DNA of 64,000 bases from positions 5,154,667 through 5,218,666 of the forward strand of contig CAJINV010000005.1 in NCBI GenBank assembly GCA_905178155.1. Reading direction: 5' to 3'. The stretch comes from Amoebophrya sp. A120 (lineage: Eukaryota > Protista > Dinoflagellata). Positions 1,667 to 63,000 of the stretch are shown here, piece after piece; position 1 is the first letter of the stretch, and every line of letters starts with the position of its first letter. A program made the translations under genes and the position numbers. The notes below the pieces were generated by a model, which saw only the letters and a program-made list of their open reading frames with translations, searched no databases and had not been told where the DNA came from.

Positions 1667-4600
1667 ATGAAACTCGCCAACAAGAATATGAAAGCTACCT
1701 TCTTCCTCGCCGTGGCTCCGTTTGGCGAGAAGTCGGGGACGAAGATGATGATGCAGATCGTTTCCGCCGTGGAGCAGGGTAAGAAGAAGAACACTAATGG
1801 TCCGGGTCGTGCTGGTAAAAAAGCTGCTGTGCCGGTCGTCGCGCCCGGAGGAGCTTCTGGCGGCCGTGGCGCGACCACGACTATGGCGTTCTCACCTGTT
1901 ACATTCTCAACTGTTACATGGGTTTATGATGCAAGAATGGCAAAAGTCAAAGCAGGGAGGTTGCAGCTGTAGCATTACAAATTCCGCACAGATTTAGGCG
2001 CTGTTTAGCCTTTCCAAAATTTGTCATGCGAAGACGCTTCACCTTGTGAGTGTTGATGTTCGTTTTGCATTGCAAATCATGTAACAGTTGAGAATGTAAC
2101 AGTTGAGAACGCCATAACGACGCACCTGTGGGTCGGGAGCGAGTTGGCCGGGACTGCCCAGTACGAGAGTTGGAAAAGCATCGGTGACTAGTAGAAATTT
2201 TTGCATTTATAAAAAATAGTACAACAAAAATCAAATATGCTTGTTGCTCACCAGCAAAAAAAATTTCTACGTAAGATTCGTTATGCGGATCTGACCTGGA
2301 GGAAAGAGGAAGATTTCGATTTGTCATGCATAAATAGCAGTACGAATACGACTACGAGTGTGCGATACTTTTTCACAGGATACAAAGGGATTCCTGCAGG
2401 TCGACCGTGCGACTGCGGCGGAGATGAAGCGGGTTGGCGATGACGACGACGACGACAACCCGACGGAGAAGGTAGCACCTAATTCATTCCCAACCTAGCC
2501 ATCGCATTTTTCGAGACACCAAATTGAAATTCTAAGCATCACAAATAGGACTAGGTCGCGCAGACCAGCGCGAACAGCGTGAGGGCCGGAATGGGTCAAC
2601 CACCTCTGTGGCCTCATTTTTGTTCTCCCATGGCCAGCGGCCCCTGCCTACAAAAATGGTCTACGCCGTGGGATTGCAGGAACGAGGCATGCAGGCTACA
2701 CAACCTGGTAAAGAAGTCGAAGATGGCGCGCGCGCATGCTAGAGAAGCATGCGCGGCTTACTGCTCACCTCTTTTTTATGTTCACACACTACAAAGGCAC
2801 ATCCTGACGTCTATGACGCGAATATGTAGAATCTAGCGGGCTCGCAGCCCCTCTCTCCGGCGACGTGGTGGCCGAGCAAGCTATGTGAGGGCACACGCCT
2901 CCCGTAGCGAGCCGTTACGCTAGCGACCTCTGCTGGGGAGGGTCCGGGGGGATTTGTTGCAGCCTGTGTTGCGTCCGGCGCTGTTACCTCTCGGCGCAGT
3001 GCTGGAGCACGGTTCGACCCACGTCTGTGGGCGCAGAGTGCGACGTCCCGCAGCCACCTCTGTGGCGCGGGCGTTGCGGTGCGGTCCCTGTTGCGCGCCC
3101 CGCGACTGTATGTAGCTGTACATAGGACGCTGCGACGAAGCAGCGCGGGTACACTTTTATACAGAAGCCTTGTCCGCCACTGAGAAGGGTGCGGCCCTTT
3201 GTTGTTGAGAACATAGATACGGACTAGAGCTACGACCCCATGCGCCCGCAGAGCTGCGGGGATTTGGGAAGGAGTTTGCGTTCGCCTCAGTATGATAACC
3301 AAAATGCTACCCAAATCACATCAACATGAATCAGGTACCAACAGGGCGGAAGCGGGTTGGCGATGACGACGACGACGACAACCCGACGGAGACGAGGGGA
3401 GCCGTTGCATATGAAATATCAAATGGAAATATGTCTTGGTCTGGAAGGTCGCAACTTGTCATGCTGTTTTTGGATTCTAAAAAAATTAGTATTGCATGAC
3501 CAGCAAGAAAGGTCCAGTTTGTGCTACGCGGAGAGGGCATTTCTCATGCGGAAAGCGCATCAGGAAGCCCTCTAAAAGTCTGTGGTGCTAGGTCATGCAT
3601 TACAGGCATCAGGGGTCATGAGAAATATGCGTGACAAGTCTTGCATTGTTCCAGACCCAGACATATTTGCATTTGATATGAACCCAAAGCCGTGACGGAC
3701 TGGGCGCAGGAGTGTGAGGAATTGAATGCGGAGTGGAAAGAACAAGCGGGACAATGTCCTCCTGATACCGCGTCAAAAGTAGTACTCGCACACATGATCG
3801 AGAAGGACTGTCCTCATGTGAGTCCCGACGTCAACAAGTGGCCGAAAATGCTTGGCCTCGAAAAAACCGACGCGACCGAAAAATGTTACCGCCTTCTCGA
3901 AGGTTACTCTCAGTTCTCGACTCTCATCCGCGGCGTCTTCAATATGGGACTCTCAAACGTTACACTCTCAAGTGTTTGATACATGACTTGTCATGCAAAG
4001 TTAGATGTGCCATAGATAATGATAACCCTAACCCTAAGCCGCCAGACGATCTTCAAGCTGCTTCGCATGACAAATTCTCGAAGGGCTAAACAGCGTCTAA
4101 ATCTGTGTCAAATGATGTGCGTCGCGAGAGCTGCAAGCATGTCCCTTAATATCTCACTGGTGCCTGCACCTGCTGTTGTTGCGTGACGAAAACAAATGGA
4201 TCGAACAGTTGGGACTGTAACGTTTGAGAGCTCTTGTCCCATACTCTAAGGCGGCATGTTGTTGAGCGCAGATACTTATGCATTGCAAAAGTATCGCACT
4301 CGTATAAATGCATTACAAATTTCCTCAGCATGAGAATTTGCAATGCTGATTTACCTGAAGCTGAAGAAAAAGACTTGTAATGCATGATTGCAATACGAGC
4401 GCGATACTTTTGCACAGGATAATACCAAGCTCATCCGCAACGTGACCGGCGACTCCGCCCCTTCCCCGGATCTGAGCGCTTGGGACGCTATCGCGAAACA
4501 CAAATCGGTGATCGACATGATCGAGGCCAAGAAAGAAATGTACCAGCTGTACATCGACCACTGGAAATTATGCCGTGTAAAAACATTTAAGTTTAACATT

Positions 4601-5013
4601 GCCACCCCAGAGTTGTCATACACGTCTGCAAGCCTCAGAGTCAGACGTTTCTCATGCGCAACCCCATGAGGAGCACTCTGTAATGCTGTCTGGCAGTTTG
4701 TCATGCTAGAATCAGGATCATGCCGCTACAATTATGTTGGCTAAAAAACGCGAGTTGTACACTCTGAGCCCAAAATTGTCATGCGCGACAGCCAAAAGAT
4801 GCTAGTTTATGTAGTAAAGTCACCATGATCTTGAGGACTATGGGGTGGGGACGTTTTTGCTCAGGATAGAAATGCGCGGAGCTGGGAAACGGCTGGCCGA
4901 AGGCCGAGGACTTTGTGGAAGACATCAATTTTCCCAGCAGCGAAATCGGCCAGGCCTGGGAAAAATACGTTGCCGATGCCGTGGCGGGTCTCGACAATTA
5001 TTTTACCAACTAA
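1667..5013 (+). CDS. Hypothetical protein; multi-exon gene interrupted by 6 introners and an 879-bp direct-repeat-flanked insertion (possibly a pseudogene)
   Basis: Removing 1882-2116, 2162-2382, 3417-3678, 3943-4243, 4277-4421 and 4569-4868 (each plus one 5-bp TSD) and the 2470-3392 insert gives one frame: MKLANKNMKATFFLAVAP...THLWVGSELAG...VDRATAAEMKRVGDDDDDDNPTETRGAVAYE...AVTDWAQECEEL...YIDHWKCAELGNGWPKAEDF...LDNYFTN*. No recognised domain. Confidence 0.65.
1882..2116. mobile_element. Introner family F (type copy; ~235-300 bp; TIR TATGGCGTTCTCAMCTGTTACATTCTCAACTGTTACATG)
   Basis: TSD ACGAC. Other copies: 3943-4243, 32514-33516 (expanded by an insert), 62607-62852. Confidence 0.92.
2426..3392. 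mobile_element. 879-bp insertion flanked by a perfect 44-bp direct repeat
   Basis: GAAGCGGGTTGGCGATGACGACGACGACGACAACCCGACGGAGA at 2426-2469 and 3349-3392, inside a coding exon. Confidence 0.7.
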
Positions 5014-6289: not shown

Positions 6290-6852
6290 ATGAAGACCAT
6301 GGATTTCGAGTCGCGGCGGCGCGCGTTCAAGCAGACGCAGGATTTGAACGACGTGCGACGAAAGCGTGAAGACGAGGAAGTGCAGCTGCGGAAAACGGAA
6401 AAGGAGGTCCTGCTGCAGAAAAAGCGCCGGGATTGCCGCAGCGATGGTTGTAGTACTGCACCAGCAGCTCCGGCGTCCACCTCGACTTCCGCTGCAGCAT
6501 CCGCTTCCTCTTCCACCACGGAAAGCATGGGTAGTACTTCTACCCACGGTAATTATAACAGCGCGGCAAGTAGGACAACCTCTAACAACAGTTGTGCCAG
6601 TGCTACCAACTACACGGCTCAGAAGATTTTAGGGCAGAGGAACACGCTGCTTTCGACAACCGACGAAGAGCATAGCTCGGGAGCGATGAATTCAAAAATG
6701 AGTCTGAATCTGAATGCAAGTGCAAGTACGCATCTTCAACTGCAGTCGACAGATCAACATGGTGCAGCTGTTGGCAATAATATTAACTCGCCTTGTGTGT
6801 TCCGTGACCATCATGATCATGGCCCGCCAGAAGACTGCTCCCCATTACTGCA
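6290..6852 (+). pseudogene. Importin-alpha-like 5' fragment (IBB domain plus S/T-rich linker), cut off by the tandem array
   Basis: MDFESRRRAFKQTQDLNDVRRKREDEEVQLRKTEKEVLLQKKRR matches the importin-beta-binding motif (RRRR-E...LRK...L.KRR). The following introner (from 6853) loses its right end at 7080, and no ARM-repeat exons are seen downstream. Confidence 0.65.
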
Positions 6853-7080
6853 TATACACTGCAAGAGATATAATGTCTGGATTTGGAAGGTTGCAACTTG
6901 TCATGCTAAATCTGGATCGTGCCAAAAATATGTGTTGCATGATTACCAAAAGATGTCCACTTTCGGACAAGTTCAGAGGCAGTTTGTCATGCAGGATAAG
7001 TAGGGATGATAGCGGTTTCACAGAATCTGCCATGCTAGGTCCTACATGCCAGACCTCATGGGTCATGGAAAATCTGCATG

Positions 7081-10000
7081 GAATAAAGTGTCCAGCCGTT
7101 GTACTAACAGAGTCGCGTATGTTGATACGACTCGGGATTTTGATGTGCTACTTGTGCAAGGACGCGGGCAAAATTTCGCCCCGGATTTTTGAACATCTTG
7201 AAGATTTGGATGGTTGGGTAAGACCAAAAAAAAATTTCTTCCTCGGAGGACGACCTCTTGCATTTCTCAAGGAGGATGCAAGTGGCACGGTGAAAAATGT
7301 CGATTTTCAGAAATTTTTCTGTTGTTCACAGTTTGTCGTGCTTCCTGTGTATTGTTTCACAGACGGTTCAATTAGTTTTAGTGTTACAACTACCGTGTAC
7401 TTACCTTGTACTTTTTTTTGTTTTTCTACTCTGGCAGCTGAGGACGCGCTAGTAGTAAGTTCTCTCGCAGGTGCACCTCCTTGTTTTTCGACGGTCGTGC
7501 GAAATTTCTCTCACTTCGGTACAGGTTTCTATTTTAAGAAGCGCACACGTCATTCTATCTTTCTGCGCCCTCCCGTCGTTTTATGATTTATTAATACAAA
7601 TTTGTCACATCGATAGATTTTTGCTACGAGGTTTTTTCTTCATCTTCACCCAAGTTAGAAGACTACTGTCGTTTTGATTCTGTAATAGTGCAACTGCAAC
7701 AAATAGTACGTAGGTAAATTTTCTGAATCAGCAACAGCAACGACACGAGATGTTCACCTCTAGAACCCTGATCTCAGGTTCCGAAGACGCAGGGCCTCTG
7801 CTCGGCCCAACAAGTACGATGTTGTCCGACAGTCCTCCATTGAGACCGGGTTCAAACGATCCAGACCCGGATCCTCTTCTACGTGAAGATTTTCCTTGCA
7901 CCAGACCAACAGCACATGGGGCTCCCGAAGCCGCAAATGCGAAAAATGCAAAAAGGAAGAACACCAGCACGAGCACTAGCAGCTTGGGAGCGGCTACTAC
8001 TGGAGGTTCTTCTTCCTACAGCGGCCCAAGTAGGACATTGTCGTCTTCAACATCGTCGACTGGTGCGGGGTTGAGCAATGATAACAAACACCAGCGCATT
8101 ATCAAATGCAAATAAGTCTGGGTCTGGAAACTTGTGATGCTGAATTGTGGATGACTGAAATACTTCCCAATGCAGCTAAGCATGACAAGTTTCCCGCACA
8201 CTTTTGCATGCGCATTCCGCATGAAAAACTGCGCTTTTGTATGACAAAAGGAGGTATCTTCTTGCTAGTCATGCAACACAGATTTTACAGGAGTGCAGGA
8301 CTAGCATTACAAGTTCCATGCTTTCAGACCCAGACATATTTGCAATGCATACGCATTCTGAATTACCCGCTCACGCCGGAAGTTGGCCCAAGGGAAGTTG
8401 TGCTCCTAGAAGCTCCACCGATCGAGAAATTCGACGTAGCAACAAGACCCGACGGAGAAACGGGCGTGCTGGAACATGATAGGGAACAGCATCACGCCGG
8501 TATAATATCTTCAAACCAGGGCGGAGGAGGAGGAGGAGCATATCAGCATAATGGAAATGAGGGTCTTGTGGCAGGACCACGAGGAGCATCTTCTTCAAGA
8601 ACACATGAGCTGCGGAAGAATACTTCTAGTACGACGAGCATAAAAGATCTGTACAACGTCGTTCCAGCATCATCTGTGAATGATGATAAGCCCCAACAGA
8701 CGATGAAAACTCGCAAGCCGCGACATTCCTGGAGCGTGCACAACTATGACCCGCTCAGGTGTCAACTTACAGGCTACGTAAACGTTTACAATAGATGAAC
8801 ATGCAAGTCTGTGATGCAAAAGGTGATGCAAAAGGTAGCCTACTTGTACTCCTGCAGAAGTGCGCATGACAAGTTCTGGAGTTGTCCCAAACGACCGCAC
8901 TAGAATCGTGCGAAATTTGATTGTATTGCAGAAAGTGGAACGTTGTGCGAGTCTGTCATGCTCGTCATCATGCAATACAAAACGCAGACTCTATTGGAAC
9001 GCTTGAGATTGTAGTAACGTTTGAGCAGGTCATAACAACCTCCGGGATTTTCTTGCTGACGAGGAAGAAGTGGACTCGGATTCCTACACCCGCATTTATG
9101 GCCTGCTCAAGTTGTGTTACAATCTGTGATGCAAAAGGTGCATGATCCATCATCCTCTTCTCACAGGAGAGTGCATCACAAGTTCGGGACGAGTACTTCT
9201 TACCAAACCGCACTAGAATCATCCGGCTAAATTTGTATTGCAAAAAGCGGAACTACACGGCTCTGTGTGTCTCTTATGCTGATCAAGCAACACAAAATCC
9301 AGACACAGATTCTGTGTACTGTAACCACGTCTGAGATTTTTGTAATAGCTGAGCAGGTTATAGCATTCCCACCGCGTTTTTCTCTACTTCGTTGACATCG
9401 GAAGATGACGACCATAACAAATTCGACGATATTAGTCTTTTTCGCAGCTACGCTGCCGAGGACCCTCACGCGGCACTCTCCCCCTCTAGCCGAACAGGAC
9501 ATCATAACCCGGCCTCCTCAAGTAGCAGGCAGCAGCGCATGGCTATCCTATGTAAAAACGTCCCCAACCCATAGTCAAGATGGGGAATCGGCTACACAAA
9601 TCTACAAGTTTTGGCTGCTTTGCATGACAAATTTGGATTCGTAGTGTCGTGCTGTTTGAGCTAGCTCAGCAGCGTCACAGATCTAGTACATCAGGCTGAT
9701 TGAAGCATGACAGATTCCAAAACACGCCTAAACAATGCCTCTCATGGGGCTCCGCATGAGAAACAGTTTCAGCATGCAGATTTGCAATACAAATACAACT
9801 ATGGGGTGGGGACGTTTTTCAATACGATAATGGCCATGGCCTCCTTGCTCCTGGACCGGTGGCGTTTCGAGGTTCTATGACAATGCACAACTCCCCCTCG
9901 TCCCCCTCATTTGTCATGCAAAATACCAATTATACATCCCTTTCCCTTAAGCACTGCTTGCATGACAGGCTCCGGAAGCTGAAACAGCACTAGAATCGGT

Positions 10001-13000
10001 CGCTGATTTGTCATGCAAAAGCTGGATTTATGCCAGCACTTGTGTTGCTGCTTATGCACTTCAAATGAGGGGGGGGGTTGTGGACTCTCATAGGTTCCGT
10101 ACGGCACGTACAAACGCATCGCACTGTTTCTCGCCATTGAGTCAGAGATTGAACCAGAGTGCGGCGACTTTTGTTTTTGCATTTGCAAACAGGACGTCGA
10201 GAGCTCATAATTAGCCGCAGCTTTCGTGTGGATACAAATAGAATAAAGTGTCCAGCCGTTGTACTAACAGAGTCGCGTATGTTTAATATACGACTCGGGA
10301 TTTTGATGTGCTACTTGTGCAAGGACGCGGGCAAAATTTCGCCCCGGATTTTCGAACATTCATTTTGAAGATTTGGATGGTTGAGTAAGACCAAAAAAAG
10401 ATTCCTTCCTCGGAGGACGACCTGTTGCATTTCTCAAGGAGGATGCAAGTGGCACGGTGAAAAATGTCGATTTTCAGAAATTTTTCTGTTGTTCACAGTT
10501 TGTCGTGCTTCCTGTGTATTGTTTCACAGACGGATTACGGTGTATTTACCTTGTTGCACTTTTTTTGTTTTTCTACTCTGGCAGCTGAGGACGCGCTAGT
10601 AGTAAGTTCTCTCGCAGGTGCACCTCCTTGTTTTTCGACGGTCGTGCGAAATTTCTCTCACTTCGGTACAGGTTTCTATTTTAAGAAGCGCACACGTCAT
10701 TCTATCTTTCTGCGCCCTCCCGTCGTTTTATGATTTATTAATACAAATTTGTCACATCGATAGATTTTTGCTACGAGGTTTTTTCTTCATCTTCACCCAA
10801 GTTAGAAGACTACTGTCGTTTTGATTCTGTAAAAGTGCAACTGCAACAAATAGTACGTAGGTAAATTTTCTGAATCAGCAACAGCAACGACACGAGATGT
10901 TCACCTCTAGAACCCTGATCTCAGGTTCCGAAGACGCAGGGCCTCTGCTCGGCCCAACAAGTACGATGTTGTCCGACAGTCCTCCATTGAGACCGGGTTC
11001 AAACGATCCAGACCCGGATCCTCTTCTACGTGAAGATTTTCCTTGCACCAGACCAACAGCACATGGGGCTCCCGAAGCCGCAAATGCGAAAAATGCAAAA
11101 AGGAAGAACACCAGCACGAGCACTAGCAGCTTGGGAGCGGCTACTACTGGAGGTTCTTCTTCCTACAGCGGCCCAAGTAGGACATTGTCGTCTTCAACAT
11201 CGTCGACTGGTGCGGGGTTGAGCAATGATAACAAACACCAGCGCATTATCAAATGCAAATAAGTCTGGGTCTGGAAACTTGTGATGCTGAATTGTGGATG
11301 ACTGAAATACTTCCCAATGCAGCTAAGCATGACAAGTTTCCCGCACACTTTTGCATGCGCATTCCGCATGAAAAACTGCGCTTTTGTATGACAAAAGGAG
11401 GTATCTTCTTGCTAGTCATGCAACACAGATTTTACAGGAGTGCAGGACTAGCATTACAAGTTCCATGCTTTCAGACCCAGACATATTTGCAATGCATACG
11501 CATTCTGAATTACCCGCTCACGCCGGAAGTTGGCCCAAGGGAAGTTGTGCTCCTAGAAGCTCCACCGATCGAGAAATTCGACGTAGCAACAAGACCCGAC
11601 GGAGAAACGGGCGTGCTGGAACATGATAGGGAACAGCATCACGCCGGTATAATATCTTCAAACCAGGGCGGAGGAGGAGGAGGAGCATATCAGCATAATG
11701 GAAATGAGGGTCTTGTGGCAGGACCACGAGGAGCATCTTCTTCAAGAACACATGAGCTGCGGAAGAATACTTCTAGTACGACGAGCATAAAAGATCTGTA
11801 CAACGTCGTTCCAGCATCATCTGTGAATGATGATAAGCCCCAACAGACGATGAAAACTCGCAAGCCGCGACATTCCTGGAGCGTGCACAACTATGACCCG
11901 CTCAGGTGTCAACTTACAGGCTACGTAAACGTTTACAATAGATGAACATGCAAGTCTGTGATGCAAAAGGTGATGCAAAAGGTAGCCTACTTGTACTCCT
12001 GCAGAAGTGCGCATGACAAGTTCTGGAGTTGTCCCAAACGACCGCACTAGAATCGTGCGAAATTTGATTGTATTGCAGAAAGTGGAACGTTGTGCGAGTC
12101 TGTCATGCTCGTCATCATGCAATACAAAACGCAGACTCTATTGGAACGCTTGAGATTGTAGTAACGTTTGAGCAGGTCATAACAACCTCCGGGATTTTCT
12201 TGCTGACGAGGAAGAAGTGGACTCGGATTCCTACACCCGCATTTATGGCCTGCTCAAGTTGTGTTACAATCTGTGATGCAAAAGGTGCATGATCCATCAT
12301 CCTCTTCTCACAGGAGAGTGCATCACAAGTTCGGGACGAGTACTTCTTACCAAACCGCACTAGAATCATCCGGCTAAATTTGTATTGCAAAAAGCGGAAC
12401 TACACGGCTCTGTGTGTCTCTTATGCTGATCAAGCAACACAAAATCCAGACACAGATTCTGTGTACTGTAACCACGTCTGAGATTTTTGTAATAGCTGAG
12501 CAGGTTATAGCATTCCCACCGCGTTTTTCTCTACTTCGTTGACATCGGAAGATGACGACCATAACAAATTCGACGATATTAGTCTTTTTCGCAGCTACGC
12601 TGCCGAGGACCCTCACGCGGCACTCTCCCCCTCTAGCCGAACAGGACATCATAACCCGGCCTCCTCAAGTAGCAGGCAGCAGCGCATGGCTATCCTATGT
12701 AAAAACGTCCCCAACCCATAGTCAAGATGGGGAATCGGCTACACAAATCTACAAGTTTTGGCTGCTTTGCATGACAAATTTGGATTCGTAGTGTCGTGCT
12801 GTTTGAGCTAGCTCAGCAGCGTCACAGATCTAGTACATCAGGCTGATTGAAGCATGACAGATTCCAAAACACGCCTAAACAATGCCTCTCATGGGGCTCC
12901 GCATGAGAAACAGTTTCAGCATGCAGATTTGCAATACAAATACAACTATGGGGTGGGGACGTTTTTCAATACGATAATGGCCATGGCCTCCTTGCTCCTG

Positions 13001-16000
13001 GACCGGTGGCGTTTCGAGGTTCTATGACAATGCACAACTCCCCCTCGTCCCCCTCATTTGTCATGCAAAATACCAATTATACATCCCTTTCCCTTAAGCA
13101 CTGCTTGCATGACAGGCTCCGGAAGCTGAAACAGCACTAGAATCGGTCGCTGATTTGTCATGCAAAAGCTGGATTTATGCCAGCACTTGTGTTGCTGCTT
13201 ATGCACTTCAAATGAGGGGGGGGGTTGTGGACTCTCATAGGTTCCGTACGGCACGTACAAACGCATCGCACTGTTTCTCGCCATTGAGTCAGAGATTGAA
13301 CCAGAGTGCGGCGACTTTTGTTTTTGCATTTGCAAACAGGACGTCGAGAGCTCATAATTAGCCGCAGCTTTCGTGTGGATACAAATAGAATAAAGTGTCC
13401 AGCCGTTGTACTAACAGAGTCGCGTATGTTTAATATACGACTCGGGATTTTGATGTGCTACTTGTGCAAGGACGCGGGCAAAATTTCGCCCCGGATTTTC
13501 GAACATTCATTTTGAAGATTTGGATGGTTGAGTAAGACCAAAAAAAGATTCCTTCCTCGGAGGACGACCTGTTGCATTTCTCAAGGAGGATGCAAGTGGC
13601 ACGGTGAAAAATGTCGATTTTCAGAAATTTTTCTGTTGTTCACAGTTTGTCGTGCTTCCTGTGTATTGTTTCACAGACGGATTACGGTGTATTTACCTTG
13701 TTGCACTTTTTTTGTTTTTCTACTCTGGCAGCTGAGGACGCGCTAGTAGTAAGTTCTCTCGCAGGTGCACCTCCTTGTTTTTCGACGGTCGTGCGAAATT
13801 TCTCTCACTTCGGTACAGGTTTCTATTTTAAGAAGCGCACACGTCATTCTATCTTTCTGCGCCCTCCCGTCGTTTTATGATTTATTAATACAAATTTGTC
13901 ACATCGATAGATTTTTGCTACGAGGTTTTTTCTTCATCTTCACCCAAGTTAGAAGACTACTGTCGTTTTGATTCTGTAAAAGTGCAACTGCAACAAATAG
14001 TACGTAGGTAAATTTTCTGAATCAGCAACAGCAACGACACGAGATGTTCACCTCTAGAACCCTGATCTCAGGTTCCGAAGACGCAGGGCCTCTGCTCGGC
14101 CCAACAAGTACGATGTTGTCCGACAGTCCTCCATTGAGACCGGGTTCAAACGATCCAGACCCGGATCCTCTTCTACGTGAAGATTTTCCTTGCACCAGAC
14201 CAACAGCACATGGGGCTCCCGAAGCCGCAAATGCGAAAAATGCAAAAAGGAAGAACACCAGCACGAGCACTAGCAGCTTGGGAGCGGCTACTACTGGAGG
14301 TTCTTCTTCCTACAGCGGCCCAAGTAGGACATTGTCGTCTTCAACATCGTCGACTGGTGCGGGGTTGAGCAATGATAACAAACACCAGCGCATTATCAAA
14401 TGCAAATAAGTCTGGGTCTGGAAACTTGTGATGCTGAATTGTGGATGACTGAAATACTTCCCAATGCAGCTAAGCATGACAAGTTTCCCGCACACTTTTG
14501 CATGCGCATTCCGCATGAAAAACTGCGCTTTTGTATGACAAAAGGAGGTATCTTCTTGCTAGTCATGCAACACAGATTTTACAGGAGTGCAGGACTAGCA
14601 TTACAAGTTCCATGCTTTCAGACCCAGACATATTTGCAATGCATACGCATTCTGAATTACCCGCTCACGCCGGAAGTTGGCCCAAGGGAAGTTGTGCTCC
14701 TAGAAGCTCCACCGATCGAGAAATTCGACGTAGCAACAAGACCCGACGGAGAAACGGGCGTGCTGGAACATGATAGGGAACAGCATCACGCCGGTATAAT
14801 ATCTTCAAACCAGGGCGGAGGAGGAGGAGGAGCATATCAGCATAATGGAAATGAGGGTCTTGTGGCAGGACCACGAGGAGCATCTTCTTCAAGAACACAT
14901 GAGCTGCGGAAGAATACTTCTAGTACGACGAGCATAAAAGATCTGTACAACGTCGTTCCAGCATCATCTGTGAATGATGATAAGCCCCAACAGACGATGA
15001 AAACTCGCAAGCCGCGACATTCCTGGAGCGTGCACAACTATGACCCGCTCAGGTGTCAACTTACAGGCTACGTAAACGTTTACAATAGATGAACATGCAA
15101 GTCTGTGATGCAAAAGGTGATGCAAAAGGTAGCCTACTTGTACTCCTGCAGAAGTGCGCATGACAAGTTCTGGAGTTGTCCCAAACGACCGCACTAGAAT
15201 CGTGCGAAATTTGATTGTATTGCAGAAAGTGGAACGTTGTGCGAGTCTGTCATGCTCGTCATCATGCAATACAAAACGCAGACTCTATTGGAACGCTTGA
15301 GATTGTAGTAACGTTTGAGCAGGTCATAACAACCTCCGGGATTTTCTTGCTGACGAGGAAGAAGTGGACTCGGATTCCTACACCCGCATTTATGGCCTGC
15401 TCAAGTTGTGTTACAATCTGTGATGCAAAAGGTGCATGATCCATCATCCTCTTCTCACAGGAGAGTGCATCACAAGTTCGGGACGAGTACTTCTTACCAA
15501 ACCGCACTAGAATCATCCGGCTAAATTTGTATTGCAAAAAGCGGAACTACACGGCTCTGTGTGTCTCTTATGCTGATCAAGCAACACAAAATCCAGACAC
15601 AGATTCTGTGTACTGTAACCACGTCTGAGATTTTTGTAATAGCTGAGCAGGTTATAGCATTCCCACCGCGTTTTTCTCTACTTCGTTGACATCGGAAGAT
15701 GACGACCATAACAAATTCGACGATATTAGTCTTTTTCGCAGCTACGCTGCCGAGGACCCTCACGCGGCACTCTCCCCCTCTAGCCGAACAGGACATCATA
15801 ACCCGGCCTCCTCAAGTAGCAGGCAGCAGCGCATGGCTATCCTATGTAAAAACGTCCCCAACCCATAGTCAAGATGGGGAATCGGCTACACAAATCTACA
15901 AGTTTTGGCTGCTTTGCATGACAAATTTGGATTCGTAGTGTCGTGCTGTTTGAGCTAGCTCAGCAGCGTCACAGATCTAGTACATCAGGCTGATTGAAGC

Positions 16001-51933: not shown

Positions 51934-53079
51934 TACAACTATCGGTCCGCCTCGCTTGGTCGTACAAATACCCTATATACTATACGGCAAGGAAAGTGAT
52001 TGGCGCCTAGCTCGATTTCTACTAGTAAAATCTTACTAGTAAGGAAAATCCGAGAATTTTATTAGTACACAACGTTGCTAGTAATCTTATCCGGACAAGC
52101 AAGCAAAAAAACTACTAGTAAGCGTACTAGTAGAGAGTTTACTAGGAGAAAGCTTACTAGTAGAAAACTGCCTCGCGGGCCGGCTCGCCCCGAGCTTGCG
52201 CCACAGAGCTCGCCCGCACTGCTTGCTTCCTTTGCCCCCTGTGGAGAAACTAGCGCCGAGCAAATAGTACCTGTGTGGTAGCGCGGGACGTGGCGCTCCT
52301 TCCCGGGAAAAGGGGGCGCAGCCGTGGGAGGGAAAGGACTTATTTGTCTGACTGAGGGTGGCGCGCTACGCGCTGGCGCGCCCGCAGGTTCAGGCGAACT
52401 AGCTCCGGCCCCGCCACGGTGCCGGTAGGGGGTTTGCGCTTTGTTTGGGTGGCCATGTTTTGCCTCGCGGGGGCGGCCCCCTCTTGGTGTGGATGCTCCG
52501 GCCGCCCTGAACGAAGAAAAAAGCGCCTTTTCTCAGTGCCCTAAATGGTTACTCCACACAGCGCGCCCAGTCCCATTGTGCTGGTTGCACCTGGCTGGCT
52601 GGCCAGGTTCTTTGTCGCGCAGTTTCCCCAGCTGCGCCCCTGTGGGCCCCGTCAAAAGCACCCCCACCGCCCTGGAAGCGTATACTAGAATGAGGAGCAG
52701 CCGCCCGCAAGGCTCGCAGCTTGGGGGGGTGCTCGCAAATTCATTCTTGGGAACCGCCCGGAAGGCTCTCCCCCTCCCACGTTGGGGCGGCCCCGGGCGT
52801 TTTTTCTGTTTCCCGGAGCTTCTCCTGCTCCTGGGGCCCGGGGCGGGCGGCTGTCACGCATTTGTCTTTCTCTAGGGGCGGGGCTCAGGCGCCCGGAAAA
52901 GCCCTGCGCCTGTAGAGTTTTCGCCCCCTCCTCTCCCCTTCCCCGCGACTGAGGACGCAGCCTTCCTAGTAGGAAATCGGGCCCATCTTCTTCTTGTCTA
53001 CTCCATACCTTTCCGGCGGTCGCGGAGCGACCGCCCGTGCTAGATACAACTATCGGTCCGCCTCGCTTCGTCGTGCAAA
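51934..53079. mobile_element. ~1.08-kb GC-rich insertion flanked by a 35-bp direct repeat
   Basis: TACAACTATCGGTCCGCCTCGCTT(G/C)GTCGT(A/G)CAAA at 51934-51968 and 53045-53079; repeated TACTAGTA motifs near the left end. Confidence 0.65.
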
Positions 53080-53686: not shown

Positions 53687-56210
53687 ATGTGCTGCCATCG
53701 CGACGGTGAGACGACCACAGCGGGCGAGGAGGAGAAGAGTAGCATGACCTACCGCAACTCGGCGGGGCGTACGGAGCGGCTCTCTTCTAGCCGCGAACTG
53801 CGGGGGTCCATCGAGTCGGATTCTACCTACTCCAGCTACTCCTCTGAGGCCCTGCCGTACGACGAGGATTTGGTTGTCATCTCGAACAAGCTATGAAATG
53901 CAAAAGTATCGTACTCGTAGTAATTGCATTTATGCATTACAAATCGCTTTGTCGAGGTAAATCAGGATTACAAATTTGATTTGTATTGCTTGGCTAACTT
54001 GTAATGCAATTTATACGAGTAGTATGCTTTTGCAATGCATACAAGCACGTTGGGTGCTGCTACTGCCTGAACACCACGGTGTGGCTCTTGCTGGGGGGGT
54101 ATCAAATGCAAAAATGTCTGGGTCGGGAAGAGCCAAACTTGTGATGCTGCATTTGGATGCTAAAAAAAGCTGTATTGCATGACCAGCAAGAGAATTCAAA
54201 TTTGGCTACGCGGAGAGGGCATTTCTCATGCTGGATGCGCATAGATAAGCGCTCAAAACATCGGTGATGTTATGGCATACATCACAGACATCATGGATCA
54301 TGGAAAATGTGCATGACAAAGTTGTGCTCTTCCAGACCCAGACACTTTTGCATTTGATAGTGGGTTGGAGATGTTCATTTTCTGGTGCCTTGCCGGCCTG
54401 GCTTGCGCCCTCAGCATCGTGGGATTTTCCTGGGCCAAGAAGTGCTTCAGCATTGCCTGCATCGTTCTCATGCCGTGGAAAAAGTCGGGCCGCGGGGTCG
54501 TCTATCAAATGCAAATATGTCTGGGTCTGGAAACTTGTGATGCTGTTTGGCGCATAATCATGTGGACGCCTTCATTGACAGCCAAGCATGACAAGTTTCC
54601 GAGTCACTATAATGTTGCCTATCCGCATGACAAACTGCGTTTCTGCATTCGAGAGAAGTGTGGCTTTATTTGGGTGGCGTGCATGACAGACTTGAGAGCC
54701 ATGCTAGCCGTGCATGACAAGCCTTGCATTCTTCCAGACCCGGACATATTTGCAATGCATATCGTCAAGAAGCACATTTACTACATCCGGAACGTGCGCT
54801 ATCGCAAGAAAAAACTGTTTCACTGTATTAAACTTGTGATGCATGGAATGCAACGCAGACGCATTTGTCTTGCTACTCATGCAAGACATTGTCTTTTTCA
54901 ATGTGTTTTCCCTTAGGTAGTACGCATGGCAGGTTTATTCCCTTGTCATGTGTAACGAACTTGTAATGCAAAAGTTGCAAAGTCCTCACAGTGAAACAGT
55001 TTTTTCTCACGATATGCGCCCAAATTACTGCGGGATTTTCATGTGGTACGTGTTTCCGCTGTGTGCTCTATCAAATGCAAAAATGACTTGGTCTGGAAGA
55101 GTGCAGACATTTGTGATGCAGTTTTTGCCTAGCCCAGATCGTCTGGCATGCAAGCCCTAGCATCACAGATTCCGAGCAGATATAATCCCAATGCCTAATC
55201 CGCATGAAAAGTGCCGCCTTTCTGTAACAGGAAGCGAGGCCTTTTGCTGACCATGCATGACAGATTTTGTCATGATGTAGAATTCGCATTACAAATTCGA
55301 ATCCTTCCAGAGCCAGACATATTTGCAATGCATATGCTCCGATCCTGAGCATTCTGCACCTGGTGTTTGCCCTCTTGAACCTGCTCACGCTGATCGGCAT
55401 TCCCTTTATCAAGTGCAAAAATGTCTGGGTCTGGAAGAGTCCGTGTTTGTCATGCTTGTCTGGAGTGACTCTTAAATCTGTCATGCACGTTACCCAAACG
55501 CCCCATTTATCTGTGATGCAGAATCACAGTTTGTCATGCAGAATAGGCAACACCTAGAAGCTCAGAAACTTGTCATGCTGAGCCAGCACTTGTGGCCTCA
55601 TCATGAGACGCCACCCAGCATCACAAGTTTCCAGACCCAGATATTTTTACATTTGATTCCCTTCGCCTACCAGCATTTCAAGTGGGCCGCGATGGTGTGG
55701 CGGTGCGGGGCCATCGCGCTTACCCTCGATATCAATTGCAAATACTGAATATCCCCCCTTGATGCTGTAGTGGTGGTCTGGAACAAGAACATTTATTTTG
55801 CCACACCACTTGTCGTTGTCCACCTCACATGCAGCTCATCTGCTGGCGCGGACAGGAAAAAAAGACCTGTCATCGACATGTAACGCTACCGCGCTATTCT
55901 TTTGTGATGCAAAAACGATGTTTCTTTGATGTGTTTCTCATGCATTTTACGCAAGTGACCTAGGCTTAGCACTAGCTGCTCAGAAATTTGTCAACTACAT
56001 GCGTGTCCTCGGCCCCATGAAAATATTGGAGGTTGGTTGTTAAGTATGATGCGCATCAAAGTCAAAGAAACTAGCACGACAATCGTTTAATATTCCAGAC
56101 GTCCAGGGGGATAGTACTTATTTGCACTCTCGATACTCGAGGAGGCCGAGCAACTGACTGGGAGCTACGCGAAAGCGGGATACGACTCCGAAGAAAATGA
56201 TGACTACTAA
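53687..56210 (+). CDS. YccF-domain (DUF307, inner-membrane-component) protein with two repeats; 7 introners
   Basis: Reconstructed LNTTVWLLLGGLEMFIFWCLAGLACALSIVGFSWAKKCFSIACIVLMPW and ILSILHLVFALLNLLTLIGIPFAYQHFKWAAMVW match the YccF repeat pattern (W...GG ... TIIGIPFA.QH.K). Ends ...EENDDY* at 56210. Confidence 0.8.
54800..55014. mobile_element. Introner family G (type copy; ~205-230 bp; TIR TATCGCAAGAAAAAACTGTTTCACTGT)
   Basis: TSD TGCGC. Other copies or relatives: 30123-30329, 35669-35876, 35952-36181, 40471-40679, 47925-48133, 48490-48699, 60114-60322. Confidence 0.9.
55730..56135. mobile_element. Diverged, expanded A-like introner (406 bp)
   Basis: TAT...ATA ends, TSD CTCGA, decayed TIR; frame restored (LTLE|EAEQ). 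Confidence 0.75.
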
Positions 56211-58199
56211 GAATGTAGTATCAAATGCAAAAATGTCTAGACGTCTGGAAGGTTGGAACTTGTGATGCTAACTTTGGACTCTACAAAAATCTGTATTGCA
56301 TGACGGACCAGCAAGAGGAGTCTACTGTTTGTGCTACGCAGGGAGGGCTGCATTTGTCATGCGGCGTGGGTACTATCAGGAAGCCCTCTAAATAAAATCT
56401 GTGATGCTAGGTCGTGCATTACAGACATCCATCCTGGGTCATGCAAAATATGCATGACAAACCCGGCAACATTCCAGACCCAGACGCTTTTGCGTTTGAT
56501 ATGTAGTGTAGTAGTACTTACTACAACCGAAGCGACGACGAGGAGAGCGACTGAGAAGAGACGACTCGCCTAGGAACTACTGCTACAAAAAAACGCGGAA
56601 AAGAATATTATGGATTCAATCATTCAAGTTATTGTTCATCTTCATACGCAAGTAGATCAAGTCCGCCGGCGCAGCACCATCAATCCGGAAGTTGTACCAG
56701 ACCTCCACTCGGATTTTTTACTATTTTCACCAGATGTACCACTACATCAAACGACTGAGCAGCAGCAGCAGTCCACCAAAGTGCATAGTTTACTAATGTC
56801 TGTGTTATCTAAAAGTAGTTCTACTAAGTGCAGCGGACTGTTCTGAAAATGAATTAAAGAGCAGGTTCATTTTATTTTGGTTTTGCATTTTACTTTTTGT
56901 TTTTTATACATTTAACATTTTCATCATCCATTATTGTAAAAATTGTTCTACGAAAATAGAGTAGCGAAGATTTTGAATATCCTTATAATTGCCTATATAA
57001 TTAAGTTTAAAACTCACTACACGAATGTTCTTGTAAGTATGTTTTCGGTTTTTTAGCATTGAAGACGAAGAGGAGAATTTTTTGCACTTTTGTTCCCGCT
57101 TGCCTGCGAGATTTTATACCTGAATACTACTTCAATCAGCTTCAGAAGTCGCCGCTGAATGTGTTGTCTTCGTGGTGGCTGCTTACTGAAATATAGTACT
57201 TCCGTCGAGGCGCGGCAGGGAGGACCACCTGAAGCAACGTACAAACAAGCTGCGTCGAGGTTGTAGTGTCGATGGTACTATCATCTCGAGGAAAGTTGGG
57301 TAAGAAGTCATTCGAGTAGAAACAATAAACAAAGTACTTTGTACCAGCTAAAAATGTCACTAAATTTTGTATTGCCGGCAAATTGTTTATACGACCGGCG
57401 CTCCTGAGCAAGAGACTATCAGGCAGCAGTGTCCGCTAGCGAGGAGGACGTGCAGATCATGGACCACTTACAAGACACAAAATGCAAACAGCATCAAGCG
57501 GCCTGTTGCCCGCAGCTGCGCGCATTGAATAAAGACCGTGGTTGTGATTCAGATTGTAATCGACCCGAGGAGTGGTCCAACTTGTTGTACTAGCGAAAAC
57601 ACATTTGAAGACGATGCTGCTGCCATCAGGATGAACTGTACATTCATAAAACTACCGGCGAGCCACGGCGGAGGGAGCGGTCGATTGTTTTGGAGACCAC
57701 TAGCGTGACGCCGACCTTCCGTGAGTACAGGGAGGACAGACACCTCCTAAGTTGTTCGAAAGATCGTGAAAGGCCACGGAAGATGGTGCAGCGGGTTCTT
57801 CGGCTTCCCTCACGACCCTTTTGGTGCATCGTTGAGTGGTTCGTTTTCCCAGTAGTCGTGACCACAGGTGCATCAAATACAAAACAGTGCCAGAAGTCGG
57901 GCAAATGAATACGAGGGTGCAGCTGGGACGTACTTGTAGTTACCCCAAGCAAGCAAATAAGCAAGGAACCACAGTGGAGGGCGTTGTAGTATCTCTGTCT
58001 GAAAAATCCGATTCCTAGCTCTTGGTCTTGACTCCAAAAGTAGACGTAGCATGTCGCATTTGCATTGCAAAGCAGCGAGCATAAAGAACGCCCGACCTGT
58101 GCCTGTCATCCTGGCGCAAGGCAAGGGCTCTTGCAATTATATGGCAAGCGAAAAATAGATAAGATCGGTAATGGTACGACGGCTCACTGTCACTCGGTC

Positions 58200-59202
58200 G
58201 ATATTGCAATGATTTGTAAAAGCTATCGGTCCGCATCTTCGCTCGGTCCATCTCTGATTGGCGCCCGGGAGGGCTTTTCGGCCCACCTGCTGTGGCTATC
58301 CCGCATGCTATGGTGGGTCGGAAGGTGCCAGAAGGTGGGGCCCAAAATGTGGCCTGGGGCGGCTTTTTGGGCACCAGCTGGAGGCTTACCCGCCCGCTAT
58401 GGTGGGCTGGAGGCCTCCCAAAACGGGTCCGGGGTGCAGATAGGGGGGGTCCAGCGGGACTTTGGCGGGACTTGGATGGCCGACCGTTTTTCTGGTCGGA
58501 AAATCGGCCATTTTAGCTCGAGCGAGCCGCTTCAGAAACCAAGTCCCGCTGAAGTCCCGCTGAAGTCCCGCTGGACCCCCCCTATCTGCACCCCGGCCCC
58601 GTTTTTGGGAGGCCTCCGGCCCACCATGGCGGGCGGGTAAACCTCCAATTGGTGCCCAAAAAGCTGTCCGCGGCAACATCTGCGGACGCGGGCCATACCA
58701 TGCGCCCTCGCGCCAGCACCGGGCGGATTCCGGCTCCTCCGGGAGACAAATTGGGGGGCCTCCACGCCCTCGGAAAAAAGTGCGCGGACTCCCGGGGGAG
58801 ATAGGCGAGGCAGAGGGCCCGTTCCGCTGTACCGAAAAGGCCGGCCCCCGGGCCACCCTTCCGGGCCGCCGCCCCCTTCCCGGCCCCCCCTATAGGCCCT
58901 CCGCCTTCCCGCCAGCTTCCCACCCCCTCTCTCTTCCTTTCCGGCCCCCATCCCGGTCCGGAATGGTCCTCCGGCGGGCCGCACGCAGTCGCTGCGCATC
59001 TGGTCTGATTTCTTCCATCTTGCTTTGGCAGATGGAGAACCAACGCAATTTGCTGCCAATTGACGCACCTACTTTCCGCATACTTTGCAAGTACCGCACG
59101 AGACCCGGAAGGCTTCACATTAACGACCCTTCCAGCTCTAAGATATTGCAATGATTTGTAAAAGCTATCGGTCGGCATCTTCGCTCGGTCCATCTCTGAT
59201 TG
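58200..59202. mobile_element. 881-bp GC-rich insertion flanked by a 61-bp direct repeat
   Basis: GATATTGCAATGATTTGTAAAAGCTATCGGTC(C/G)GCATCTTCGCTCGGTCCATCTCTGATTG at 58200-58260 and 59142-59202; internal ~100-bp inverted repeat (~58360-58470 versus ~58550-58665). Confidence 0.7.
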
Positions 59203-60004
59203 TTGCTCGGTGCTACGGTTATCGGAGTTTGATTCTTGTACCATAATCCGAAGCGGAACAAACACAAACTTTGACTTTCTCATCTTCATCAATCTTGTTG
59301 ACGTCGTCGGTCGCGAAGAACAAGTTCTGTGTGAAGAGTCTTCGGGATCAAGATTTACAAGAAATTCGCTGCAGCAGAGTCGAAGCTAAGCTATGATCAT
59401 TTAGTTTCGAATATTTAGTTGTGAAAAAGATTTCATCTTCATAATTCTGACGTTTCTTTTCAATACCGCTTGCTACAGTGCAGCTCCTGAAGGTTGTAAA
59501 TAGAGCCACAAACTGCCAACTTCTCCTCCTCGCGACGGGGCCTCCCGTTCTTAACCGAAAACTACTAAATCGAAGACTTTTATTAACGTGGTCTGTTGAC
59601 AGATCACGCAACTATTTCTACAATCTCTAGTACCTACTTGAGGCGACTCGAAAATAGATTTTTGAGGAACAACTCGAAATAAGTGCAAATGTTTCTTTTT
59701 TTGTCTTCGCGTTCGCATAGTGTTTGTGGTGTAGTAGTGCTGTACCACACGACGACGTCGACCCAGCGTGAAGTACAACTATTTCGTGGAATAAGTACGA
59801 GTCAACGAGCAGGAACAAGTACTTAGACGAAGAGCTGCACCGCCAATCTAAAAATCGTCAATAGAAATAGAAAACAAGTCGAAGAACTATAGCTACAGGT
59901 CACAACTACAGATCTATCACAAGGAACTACAGAGCCGCGCCAAGATCAAAAAAAAAATTGGAGGCAAGGCAACTTTACAACTCGTCCGTAGGACAGCACC
60001 TACT

Positions 60005-63000
60005 ATGTTTTCGCAAGTGAAGAAAACCTCGGGCCTTTTGGCCACTGTTCTGACCGCGGGGGAGCTTCCTCACCCGGGTGCGGGACTTCTTGTACTAGAG
60101 CAGGAACAGCAGGCATCCCACGAAAAAACTGTTTCACTGTGGTGATTTTTGACGATCTGCATCACAAGTTTGTTACACATGACACAGAAAACCTGCCATG
60201 CGCACTTCCCCAGGGAAAACACGCTTAAAAATCCAATGTCTTGCAGGTGTAACAAGATAAATAGTTCTGTGTTCCATTCTATGCATCACAAGTTCACAGT
60301 GAAACAGTTTTTTCTTGCGATAGCAGGAGATGGAAAACACCAAGGCCCCTCAACCGCCGCCGGGGATCATGCGTGTACTCGGCAAATTTGGTCCTTGGGC
60401 GATGAAAAACATTGCTGACATGAAGGCGGCGATCGTGGAGCGGCAAGTGGTGGAGAAAATCATATCAAATGCAAAAATTTCTGGGTCTGGGAGATTGCGA
60501 GATTTGTCATGCTAGTCTGGCATGCGCATGGCTCTCAAGTCTGTCATGCGCGCCACCCAAAAGCCACATTTCTATGTCATGCAGAAACGCAGTTTGTCAT
60601 GCAGATAGACAAGACTATAGCTTAGCAACCCCAAAACTTGTCATGCTTGGCTGTCAATGAAGGCGTCCACATGATTCTCCAAACAGCATCACAAGTTTCC
60701 CAGACCCAGACATATTTGCATTGGATAAATCAAGGACAAGTACCAGACATTTCACGAAGACAACATGGAGTTCATTTCTAGCGGGCTCCTATGGATTGCA
60801 AAAATGTCTGGGTCTGGAAGAATGCAGGAGTTTGTCATGCAGATTTTGCATGACCCATGAGGTCTGTGATGCATGCCCTAGCATCAGAGATTTTGCGAGG
60901 GCTTTCTGATGCTCATACCGCATGAGAAATGCCCTCTCCGCGTAGCACAAAATACACCTCTTTTGCTGTTCATGCAATACAGATTTGACGTAGAGTCCAG
61001 AGGTAGCATCACAAGTTGCATCCTTCCAGACCCAGACATTTTTGCATTTGATAGCTCCTGGGAAACGAGAATTGGACGGGGCTACAGCCGGGCACGATTG
61101 TTCTGGGGAAAACTACCCTCGCCGGCGCGGCCCATATGCATTGCAAAAGCATCGTACTAGTAGAAATCACATTACAAATTCGGCCAGCATGACAAATGGA
61201 ATTTGTCATGCTGTTTTGCCTTGAAAAAGAGATTTGCAATGCATAAATGCAATTACTACGAGTACGATACTTTTGCAATGCATAGCCCAGGGGCCGGTGC
61301 AAGATGCATTCCCGAATTACGACGTCTACAAGGTGGTGGTATCCTGTGCAAAAGTTGTATCGTACTCGTACTACTTGCAATCTTGCATGACAAACTTACC
61401 TTTTTAGCTGAATTAGCATTACAAATTCCATTTTTCTTTCTGATAAAATTTGTAATGCAATTTATACTACTAGTACGATATTACTTTTGCAATGCATAGG
61501 TGGAAAATAACGGCAACGTCGGTGACGCGGTCAAGTTCTTGCCCGTGTTCCGTCATTATCAAATGTAAAAATGTCTGGGTCTGGAAGAATGCAAGACTTG
61601 TGATGCAGGTTTTCCATGACCCATGAGGTCTGGAATGCGAGACCCAGCATGACAGATTTTTTGCGGTCTCTATCATGCCCTTCCTGCATGAGAAACTCCC
61701 TCTCAACTTGGTCAGAAGCGGACAGCTTTTGGTACTCACGCAACACAGATTTTTGCGTCATTCAGATTTAGCACGACAAGTTCCAACCTTCCGGACGTAG
61801 GCCGGATCATCCCCCTCAAGATAAGATCACCCCCCTCAAGTTTCCAAGATCACCCCCCTCAAGGGCATAGGGTTTAGGTTTTAGGGCTTAGGGGGTAGGG
61901 TTTCGGCGGTGTCGTCTGGGCCAGCCGTCGCGACGGCGCCGTCGCGACGGCTGGCCCAGACGATTCCCTCTTTCCTGTTCCGGGCCCGGGGCACGCACCG
62001 CCGTGCCGCCCTCGCCCCCCCCTTTGTTTGTTTCCCCTTCCCTTCCCCCTTCATTGGTTTGCCGTGACCCGGCTCGGGGGCGGGGACACGCTCACTGTGC
62101 CGCCTTTGTTGCCTCGGGGGGCGAGGCGCTAGGCGCTCCCGGGCTTCCTCGGGTGGCTGCCCGCCTGTGGCACATCTTGAGCCAGGAAACCTATTGGAAG
62201 GCCTTCCAGCAAATAGACACCAACGCCGCCCCGCCCTGCCCCCGGTCTGCCTGCCGCCGGCCCGCCTGCCCTTGTCCCCCCCCGTAGCCTGGCTGCCTGC
62301 CCCTGGCCTCGCTCGTGGCCCCCTTCCTACCTTCCTGCCCCTGGCCCACCCCCTGGCCCCCCTCAACCCCCCCCCCTGCATCTTGAGGGGGGTGATCCTT
62401 GGGGGGATGATCCTGCCTATGTCCCAACCTTCCAGACCCAGACATTTTTGCACTTGATAGTCATCCCAACCCGGACACCAACGGCGCGGCGCCACTTGTT
62501 CTCCCGACGGGGCCCCCGGTGGGTGAACAGTCGCCCGTTGGGGATGCGGCGACGCCGTTCGAGCTGCCGGATGACATGCAGCTGTTCGAAATGCCTCGCG
62601 CCACCTTATGGCGTTCTCAAACGTTACAGTCTCAGCTGTTACATGAATTTGTAATGCAAGAATGGCAAAAGCAAAAGGGGGAAGATAAAGATTGCAAAAA
62701 TTGCATGAGGACAAATCCCGCGCAGATCTAGGTGCTGTTTAGCCCTTCGCAAATTTGTTATGCGAAGCCGTTTGATCTTGTGGATGATGGTGGTAGTTCT
62801 GCATGACAAATGCATGTAACAGCTAAGAGTGTAAACGTTTGAGAACTCCATACACCTCCAAGTTCCGGGCCATGGTGCGAGCGAAGGACGAGAAAAAATC
62901 CGGGCTTTACTGGGTTACCGTGCCCGGTGACGCGGGTTATTCTGAGTAAAAACGCCCCCACCCCAGAGTTGTCCCAAAGTTCGAAACTTCTCTGTGCTTT

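Follow-up and report, generated by a model that had tools for sequence, protein, structure and literature searches.

Inverted-Repeat Elements and the Host Gene g5

The stretch of DNA analysed here (the window) comprises 64,000 nt of Amoebophrya sp. A120 (contig CAJINV010000005.1, positions 5,154,667–5,218,666, forward strand) and contains 90 distinct inverted-repeat elements with TAT...ATA termini and flanking 5-bp direct repeats. A scan for inverted repeats with flanking repeats, extended by BLAST and manually, gave 88 non-redundant elements, to which two decayed elements were added afterwards; a further 15 are tandem duplicates. Lengths range from 138 to 406 bp, with two longer copies that carry nested insertions. 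Forty of the elements lie in the host gene g5 (nt 35470–51121, + strand), which has a stop-free frame of 2012 codons once they are removed; for 34 of the 40, removal is supported by probable-RNA contigs (see below). In order along the + strand they occupy nt 35669–35876, 35952–36181, 36542–36690, 36755–37061, 37150–37405, 37466–37786, 37916–38177, 38543–38728, 38930–39198 and 39505–39668 (elements 1–10); 39759–39918, 40130–40395, 40471–40679, 40881–41190, 41238–41482, 41528–41665, 41719–41904, 41952–42103, 42127–42381 and 42708–42969 (11–20); 43050–43202, 43301–43622, 43747–43982, 44218–44552, 44595–44744, 44918–45154, 45287–45589, 46390–46667, 46746–47053 and 47159–47409 (21–30); and 47442–47656, 47712–47856, 47925–48133, 48179–48435, 48490–48699, 48741–48999, 49031–49342, 49915–50082, 50140–50461 and 50712–50918 (31–40). 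One g5 exon (nt 43988–44215) carries a YLDAD motif that we take to resemble family-8 glycosyltransferases; searched alone, it gave no Pfam match. Across the window, removal of each element together with 5 nt leaves 83 of 88 junctions inside a + strand frame no shorter than 200 codons, compared with 9 of 88 on the − strand and 34–49 of 88 for out-of-phase removals.

The sample was enlarged by a motif scan of metagenome contigs, which returned 143 loci of the public contigs JACKZZ01 with the same families; a motif scan of viral contigs found none. Seventy of these loci, each of at least 2 kb, were pooled with the window. Strand-symmetric detection gave 579 elements (539 after duplicate removal) and recovered 85 of the 89 curated window copies with no extra ones. 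After 91 copies without a gene-strand call and two at contig edges were dropped, 446 were kept, the window copies being assigned to the + strand from the curated genes. Seventeen families have at least three members. The 5′ tip reads TAT in 421 of the 446 copies, and A occupies tip positions 11, 12 and 13 in 366, 394 and 401 of them, respectively. The 5-bp repeat has at most one mismatch in 402 copies, although this fraction is not independent, as the detector requires a repeat. Element 8100 is present in a tandem gene copy while the paralogue at nt 20955–24221 has one copy of the repeat only, and this pair of a filled and an empty site identifies the 5-bp repeat as a target duplication. No transposase frame was evident in the eight long TAT...ATA elements that occur in about 717 kb of sequence (one looked at closely). 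The elements are non-autonomous, transposon-type insertions with the features of MITEs (miniature inverted-repeat transposable elements), namely terminal inverted repeats (TIRs), target-site duplications (TSDs) with an empty site, and no coding capacity.

Orientation of the Elements

A sequence-only reading of the window had named nine elements as examples of subfamilies excised from + strand genes in either orientation. All nine are present at the coordinates given, each having TAT...ATA tips and a 5-bp repeat at its flanks, and same-family copies do lie in opposed orientations within + strand genes, strongly so for the A-type and more weakly for the F- and D-types. With the terminal repeats trimmed, A-type cores are more alike on opposite strands than on the same strand in the pairs 3417/37150 (79.7 vs. 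58.9% identity), 3417/60790 (79.9 vs. 63.9%), 54100/37150 (74.2 vs. 57.4%) and 54100/60790 (79.9 vs. 59.3%). The D-type pair 21052/49031 gave 66.5 vs. 59.5%, with local scores of 156 vs. 60. For opposed F-type pairs the difference is weaker but has the same direction (53.7–61.1 vs. 47.2–51.2%), and the local scores were 155 vs. 64 for 1882/32514 and 96 vs. 31 for 3943/1882. The orientation graphs contain no inconsistent edges, either in the window or in the larger set.

The claim that the frame is restored either way holds for the 83 open junctions but was not shown at 32514, a copy of 1003 bp containing a nested insertion, where the open stretch spans no more than 80 codons. The F-type element (nt 32514–33516) and an A-type element (33603–33855) together span nt 32514–33855, a region with no assigned strand in which an intact gene was not demonstrated. 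The proposed check for strand bias across families, made on the window and related contigs, gave a ratio of about 50:50, the minority orientation accounting for 165 of 394 copies in the 13 largest families. Twelve of the 13 show no departure from 50:50, and family 4 (window elements 37466, 43301 and 50140) leans 6:19 (p = 0.015, uncorrected, one of 13 tests). Family 4, the sole one leaning to one orientation, is also the most self-complementary family.

Removal from Probable RNA

Transcript evidence came from runs X3–X6, which represent a single sample and whose status as RNA is a program's guess. Contigs of these runs lack 34 of the 40 g5 elements and keep a single copy of each repeat, 18 of the losses being seen singly and 16 by summed length. 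Of 17 contig joints, the 15 analysed span 16 elements. All 14 single-element joints skip the element length plus 5 nt, and the one joint that spans two elements agrees with a pair of removals of this kind. For elements 40130 and 50712, removal was read from contig pieces. In a 3546-nt contig, the missing length equals the exact summed prediction for 16 more elements in three intervals, and in contig 11 of run X3 the lengths missing from four intervals (1045, 2494, 500 and 212 nt) matched the prediction in all four. The g5 elements outside this count are 35952, 36542, 36755, 37150, 43301 and 43747. Two of the nine named examples fall in the region compared with these contigs: 49031 has RNA support, by summed length, and 37150 is without cover. 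Removal in both orientations is nevertheless borne out by contigs for six families, three of them by direct joints, and these include other A- and D-type copies. The A-type copy at nt 38930–39198 (− strand) is the reverse complement of 42708–42969 (79.4 vs. 54.8% identity), and both are removed in RNA contigs; each of the two has a predicted fold with a long stem at its ends (z about −6.5). Two raw RNA runs, X9 and X10, gave 47 and 175 mapped reads, nearly all 90–95% alike and with partial fits.

Elements are present in DNA. In the DNA run X1, contigs without differing letters pass through elements 37916 and 45287 and through intergenic DNA. An X3 contig ends 232 nt past the stop codon, where the DNA contig goes on. 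The elements stay in the DNA and are missing from the likely RNA. The alternative is that removal occurs at the DNA level, or by a transposase-like symmetric reaction in the manner of internal eliminated sequences (IESs), with the spliced contigs representing rearranged DNA. It can draw on the transposon anatomy with empty sites, on the guessed RNA status of X3–X6 and on the use of a single DNA run that may be the source of the window itself. We consider it very improbable. IESs of the ciliate type are absent from somatic DNA, whereas the elements occur in X1 (one run), and the X3 contig stops short of where the DNA contig goes on. The cut register and tip conservation, described below, track the direction of transcription, and the introners of A120 were defined by RNA-seq junctions (Farhat et al. 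2021, PMC7789003).

Position of the Cut

Within a perfect 5-bp repeat the cut can be placed at several positions, and imperfect repeats show which copy is retained in the exon. Only one register (k = 4) fits all 16 tested junctions, so that the intron runs from 1 nt before the 5′ tip to 4 nt after the 3′ tip (N-TAT...ATA-NNNN). The imperfect repeat of the intron at nt 39504–39672 (+ strand) leaves one possible cut site, after repeat position 4 and before position 5, the joint 39503–39673 being found in three runs with no slack. Among the other informative cases, 38543 requires at least four upstream positions, 41719 at most four and 42708 at least two. The first of these belongs to a decayed intron (nt 38542–38732, + strand) that has lost the repeat at three of five positions and has the ends GT..TC, and is removed as N-TAC...ATA-NNNN in one contig of run X4.

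A coding-likelihood test on 81 imperfect repeats favoured, in both orientations, assigning positions 2–4 of the upstream repeat copy to the exon. The test was significant at Markov orders 3 and 4 (at order 4, 15 of 19 and 13 of 19 in the two orientations; p = 0.001 overall). A stop-codon test of the register had two informative cases among 84. At all sites where its position is defined, the cut has a stagger that follows the direction of transcription. Two patterns apparent in the window were discarded because the larger set did not reproduce them: a surplus of mismatches at repeat position 5 (44, 32, 30, 37 and 36 mismatches at the five positions of the larger set) and a drift towards GT-AG.

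Conserved Bases, Stem and Internal Motifs

Tip polarity was assessed after dropping 44 copies whose repeats differ at more than one position, which left 402. Departures from TAT at intron positions +2, +3 and +4 number 2, 2 and 16, while those at the mirror positions −5, −6 and −7 number 17, 8 and 4 (Fisher p = 5e-6; p = 1e-4 excluding the window). This polarity is kept in both orientations of the elements (1, 1, 6/6, 2, 1 and 1, 1, 6/9, 5, 2), and 15 of 16 informative loci agree with it (permutation p = 2e-4). When ends are sorted by element orientation instead, no polarity is seen. A strand mutation bias does not fit, since the excess reverses direction between neighbouring positions. Positions outside the tip, out to 70, show no polarity save one at p = 0.045. 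The bases T+2, A+3 and A−7 are therefore conserved in the direction of the gene and not of the element.

The terminal nucleotides are not those of canonical U2-type introns (GT/GC...AG). G at +1 (136 of 446 copies) and a terminal AG (31 of 446) are not enriched, and they occur together in nine copies, with 9.5 expected. The two copies with C at +2 (43301–43622 and 60114–60322) both have GC...AG ends, so that +2 C is found in two of eight G...AG copies and none of the 394 others (p = 3.5e-4, post hoc). A search for GT-AG or a strand-specific branch motif inside the elements found none, in agreement with the sequence-only reading. After correction, no k-mer inside the elements was clearly strand-biased (the best 6-mer had p = 5e-5 among 2009 tested, the best 5-mer p = 2e-4 among 512). 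An ab initio hunt for canonical introns gave noise, and hence no canonical branch consensus for comparison.

That reading had attributed recognition to symmetric features, and this survives in part. A terminal stem is present in 114 of 120 folds, and the A/U tract at tip positions 11–13 has a mutation rate of 1.6–2.2% in each arm, compared with about 5% for positions 14–30; it is some three times more conserved than the remainder of the stem. Stem positions 4–7 are paired in only 41–66% of copies, and arm-to-arm indels of 2–6 nt occur deeper in the stems of 5 of 34 RNA-supported introns, with unchanged removal length. For G-U wobble pairs, the bias in stems (0.024 vs. 0.019) did not clearly exceed that of the interior (0.037 vs. 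0.033), and compensatory double changes (18 of 25) could be accounted for by subfamily variation.

The third symmetric feature, the paired 9-mer GCAT-G/C/T-ACAA, fared less well. It occurs 426 times in sense and 419 times in antisense, about one exact copy per element per strand, and has no added conservation in a 3′ role (positions 30–60). It could be imagined that a spliceosome uses the A of this 9-mer as its branch point, 30–50 nt upstream, supplied in either orientation by the inverted sub-terminal repeats; in 159 of 426 copies the sense 9-mer does fall in its peak zone, 30–49 nt from the 3′ end, and a TNAC core lies inside it. The mirror 9-mer is, however, equally peaked at the 5′ end (159 of 419), and this symmetry speaks against a branch function because a role in transposase binding would explain it. 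Together with the single exact copy per strand and the lack of a conservation excess in the 3′ role, it makes this explanation improbable.

Possible Mechanism of Removal

The orientation independence of removal can be understood from the tips. Each inverted end has TAT on one strand and is ATA when read on the opposite one, so that an element presents both polar signals whichever way it is inserted; removal in both orientations therefore needs no symmetric chemistry. A symmetric, transposase-like or purely structural reaction, as had been proposed from the sequence, does not agree with the staggered cut, the three gene-polar tip bases, the retention of the elements in DNA or the tolerance of arm indels; a transposase-like reaction in particular is unlikely, since the cut and the tip conservation follow the direction of the gene.

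The reading we prefer, at a probability of about 0.5, is that the introns are removed by a relaxed, U1-less spliceosome of the U2 type, with U+2/A+3 as donor and A−7 as branch. The long terminal stem with its A/U tract (positions 11–13) would join the intron ends and substitute for U1, U+2/A+3 would be read as a GUA donor with a relaxed +1 position, A−7 would be the putative branch adenosine, and the 3′ cut would be measured 6 nt behind A−7, without AG. In a donor site, positions U+2 and A+3 are those that U6 contacts. Published precedents exist for separate parts of this scheme: A120 has kept 83 of 89 spliceosomal proteins while U1 was not detected (PMC7789003), the U2 spliceosome of Fritillaria removes non-GT-AG introns (PMC13326754), and in Trichomonas the branch site is fused to the intron's 3′ end (PMC12316389).

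Several observations weigh against a relaxed spliceosome. Positions +1, −1 and −2 are wholly free, with neither G+1 nor terminal AG enriched, and to our knowledge such free terminal bases are unlike any known class of spliceosomal intron. A−7 lies without U2-complementary context and has two clear A-to-G exceptions among four listed. The GC...AG signal consists of two window copies and none from related contigs. As to the register, a single junction is pinned exactly, the RNA pins no family in both orientations, and the coding-likelihood test missed significance at Markov orders 2 and 5 (p = 0.08 and 0.06) and is weak at position 4. The four RNA runs, finally, are one sample with a guessed status.

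The same data can be read in terms of a dedicated, non-spliceosomal RNA endonuclease and ligase that recognise the terminal stem plus a few tip bases, cut with a 3-nt stagger and ligate the exons, as has been proposed for the nonconventional introns of euglenids. This is a possibility of some weight, albeit one we think probably incorrect. The free terminal dinucleotides and the stem and A/U tract kept on both arms would suit it, as would the failure to detect U1 in A120 (PMC7789003). A comparable asymmetric code (N3-CDG...CHG-N5-6) is used by the introns of Euglena, which yield circles and whose removal machinery is believed not to be the spliceosome (PMC12501133; PMC12621601). On the other hand, the conserved bases occupy spliceosomal positions (U at +2, A at +3 and an A close to the 3′ end), and GC...AG ends are found in both +2 C copies. 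The pairing partners of the conserved bases are unconserved, so that tip pairing is not the selected feature, and no candidate enzyme was identified.

If the preferred spliceosomal reading is extended to the whole genome, one may tentatively propose a splicing code without terminal dinucleotides, in which any TAT...ATA transposon would be spliced out either way round, its stem standing in for U1, and perhaps for the U2 branch helix too, and thereby exposing U+2/A+3 and A−7. The geometry of a stem-exposed adenosine at −7 is reminiscent of the bulged A of group II introns. Were this so, each insertion of a TAT...ATA transposon would be silent in mRNA wherever it lands. The fixed register and three gene-polar bases lead to exact predictions about the position of the lariat branch, the point mutants that should fail and the annotation of genes, and they account for the way in which exons could be populated by a transposon, at random sites and either way round (40 copies in g5), with no need for GT or AG at the target. 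How tens of thousands of non-canonical introns are removed in A120 is given as an open question in the literature (PMC7789003).

Comparison with Known Introners

To judge from sequence, the elements belong to the published A120-type class of Amoebophrya introners. Those described by Farhat et al. have inverted repeats consisting of TAT, seven variable nt and at least three A, direct repeats of 3–5 nt at the borders, a length of about 240 nt, hairpins and co-oriented gene blocks (PMC7789003), as do the window elements. The TAT/A-tract ends, border repeats, repeated families, removal from probable RNA and mostly non-GT-AG termini of the class are all found in the window. In that report splice positions are called variable or unknown, and the text and legends consulted speak of orientation for genes only and not for elements, whereas here the register is fixed at 1/4 and orientation is 50:50; the three gene-polar bases and the constrained A/U tract likewise go beyond its text. 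The portions of PMC12130899, PMC11282704, PMC9860276 and PMC8469720 cited here do not state two-way removal or a fixed register for A120 introners, and no such statement was found in the literature searched, although Huff 2016, Henriet 2019, Roy 2023 and Guminska 2021 may cover two-way splicing and Figures 3 and S19–S23 of PMC7789003 may show a dominant register. The method of a 2022 introner survey permits matches in opposite orientation (PMC9860276). To judge from the papers searched, the orientation result and the testable splicing code are new for a known class of element.

The nonconventional introns of Euglena (Nomura et al. 2025, PMC12501133; Gao et al. 2024, PMC11170887) share with the window elements a MITE-like origin, terminal pairing, direct repeats, the absence of a terminal dinucleotide rule and a longer spacer on the 3′ side. 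The Euglena code (N3-CDG...CHG-N5-6|R) relies, however, on a CAG-CTG motif, while in the window (N-TA(T)...A(TA)-N4) the partners of the key bases are free; the window elements do not follow the euglenid code, and the lineages are unrelated. MITE-derived introns of Fritillaria borealis also have TIRs and TSDs and lack GT-AG, and are removed by a U2-type spliceosome, but they prefer AG-AC/AG-AT ends and U1 is conserved, in contrast to the free ends and undetected U1 of A120 (PMC11282704, PMC13326754). The TIR/TSD introners of Micromonas, Aureococcus, Symbiodinium and further taxa are, as here, non-autonomous DNA transposons turned introns (PMC9860276, PMC12130899, PMC11282704); they carry or co-opt GT/GC and AG sites, and the window elements require neither.

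Other Genes and Features of the Window

The remaining host genes are on the + strand. Near the right end, g6 (nt 53687–56501) contains elements 53892–54041, 54100–54359 (A-type), 54503–54761, 54800–55014, 55069–55334, 55407–55658 and 55730–56135, with 56219–56501 just after the stop codon. Its exon 54365–54499 encodes a YccF domain (Pfam); Pfam gave names to 2 of 12 exons searched. For one window exon the nearest named protein relative is from Amoebophrya (taxon 88552; E = 1.7e-9; two matches among 3368 candidates). Gene g7 (nt 59852–63476) has elements 60114–60322, 60463–60727, 60790–61053 (A-type), 61135–61284, 61340–61498, 61557–62459 (with a nested insertion), 62607–62852 (F-type), 62938–63285 and a truncated one at 63349–63476. 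The insertions nested in elements 61557 (nt 61798–62419) and 32514 (32745–33466) are GC-rich, and the former has inverted ends of its own and telomere-like repeats near nt 61867–61901; similar nesting occurs in a related-contig locus (L017, nt 505–1608). Two GC-rich intergenic segments (nt 51936–53068 and 58200–59200) have direct-repeat flanks (exact matches of 22 and 32 nt) and a common short core, the second also containing nested inverted repeats at 58387–58639; they possibly represent another class of mobile element.

Two predicted membrane-protein genes (nt 24257–31514) contain elements 24383–24681, 24747–24896, 24955–25210, 25530–25793, 25838–25986, 26050–26283, 27615–27866, 28131–28426, 28523–28772, 29207–29526, 29833–30065, 30123–30329, 30425–30773 and 31033–31321. 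The gene at 27502–31511 has a frame shift at nt 29531–29767, a stretch that ends in a pyrimidine-rich CAG and is likely to be a conventional intron, its donor not placed. To the left lies a full gene (nt 20955–24221) with elements 21052–21358 (D-type), 21405–21683, 22309–22616, 22679–22941, 22996–23151, 23284–23564 and 23611–23842, along with the empty site of element 8100. A truncated copy of this gene is present in four tandem copies with a period of 3147 (nt 7748–19533), each with five elements, those of the first being 8100–8351, 8745–9034, 9097–9362, 9544–9829 and 9876–10092. The first tandem copy is without element 22996, just as the paralogue is without element 8100. The near-identical 3147-bp unit recurs four to five times over nt 7413–20300, an array that is either a recent amplification or an assembly artefact. 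At its edge, a partial duplicate (nt 6290–7080; 94% identical, 187 aa) of the importin-alpha N-terminus stops within a truncated element; the full-length protein (P0001) ends at nt 2–151.

At the left end of the window, g1 (nt 1668–2500) carries elements 1882–2116 (F-type) and 2162–2382 (decayed), and g2 (nt 3299–5013; 228 codons) carries 3417–3678 (A-type), 3943–4243 (F-type, opposite to 1882), 4277–4421 and 4569–4868. The end of g1 (nt 2424–2470) and a region near the start of g2 (3345–3391) have in common a short stretch encoding the acidic run KRVGDDDDDDNPTE.

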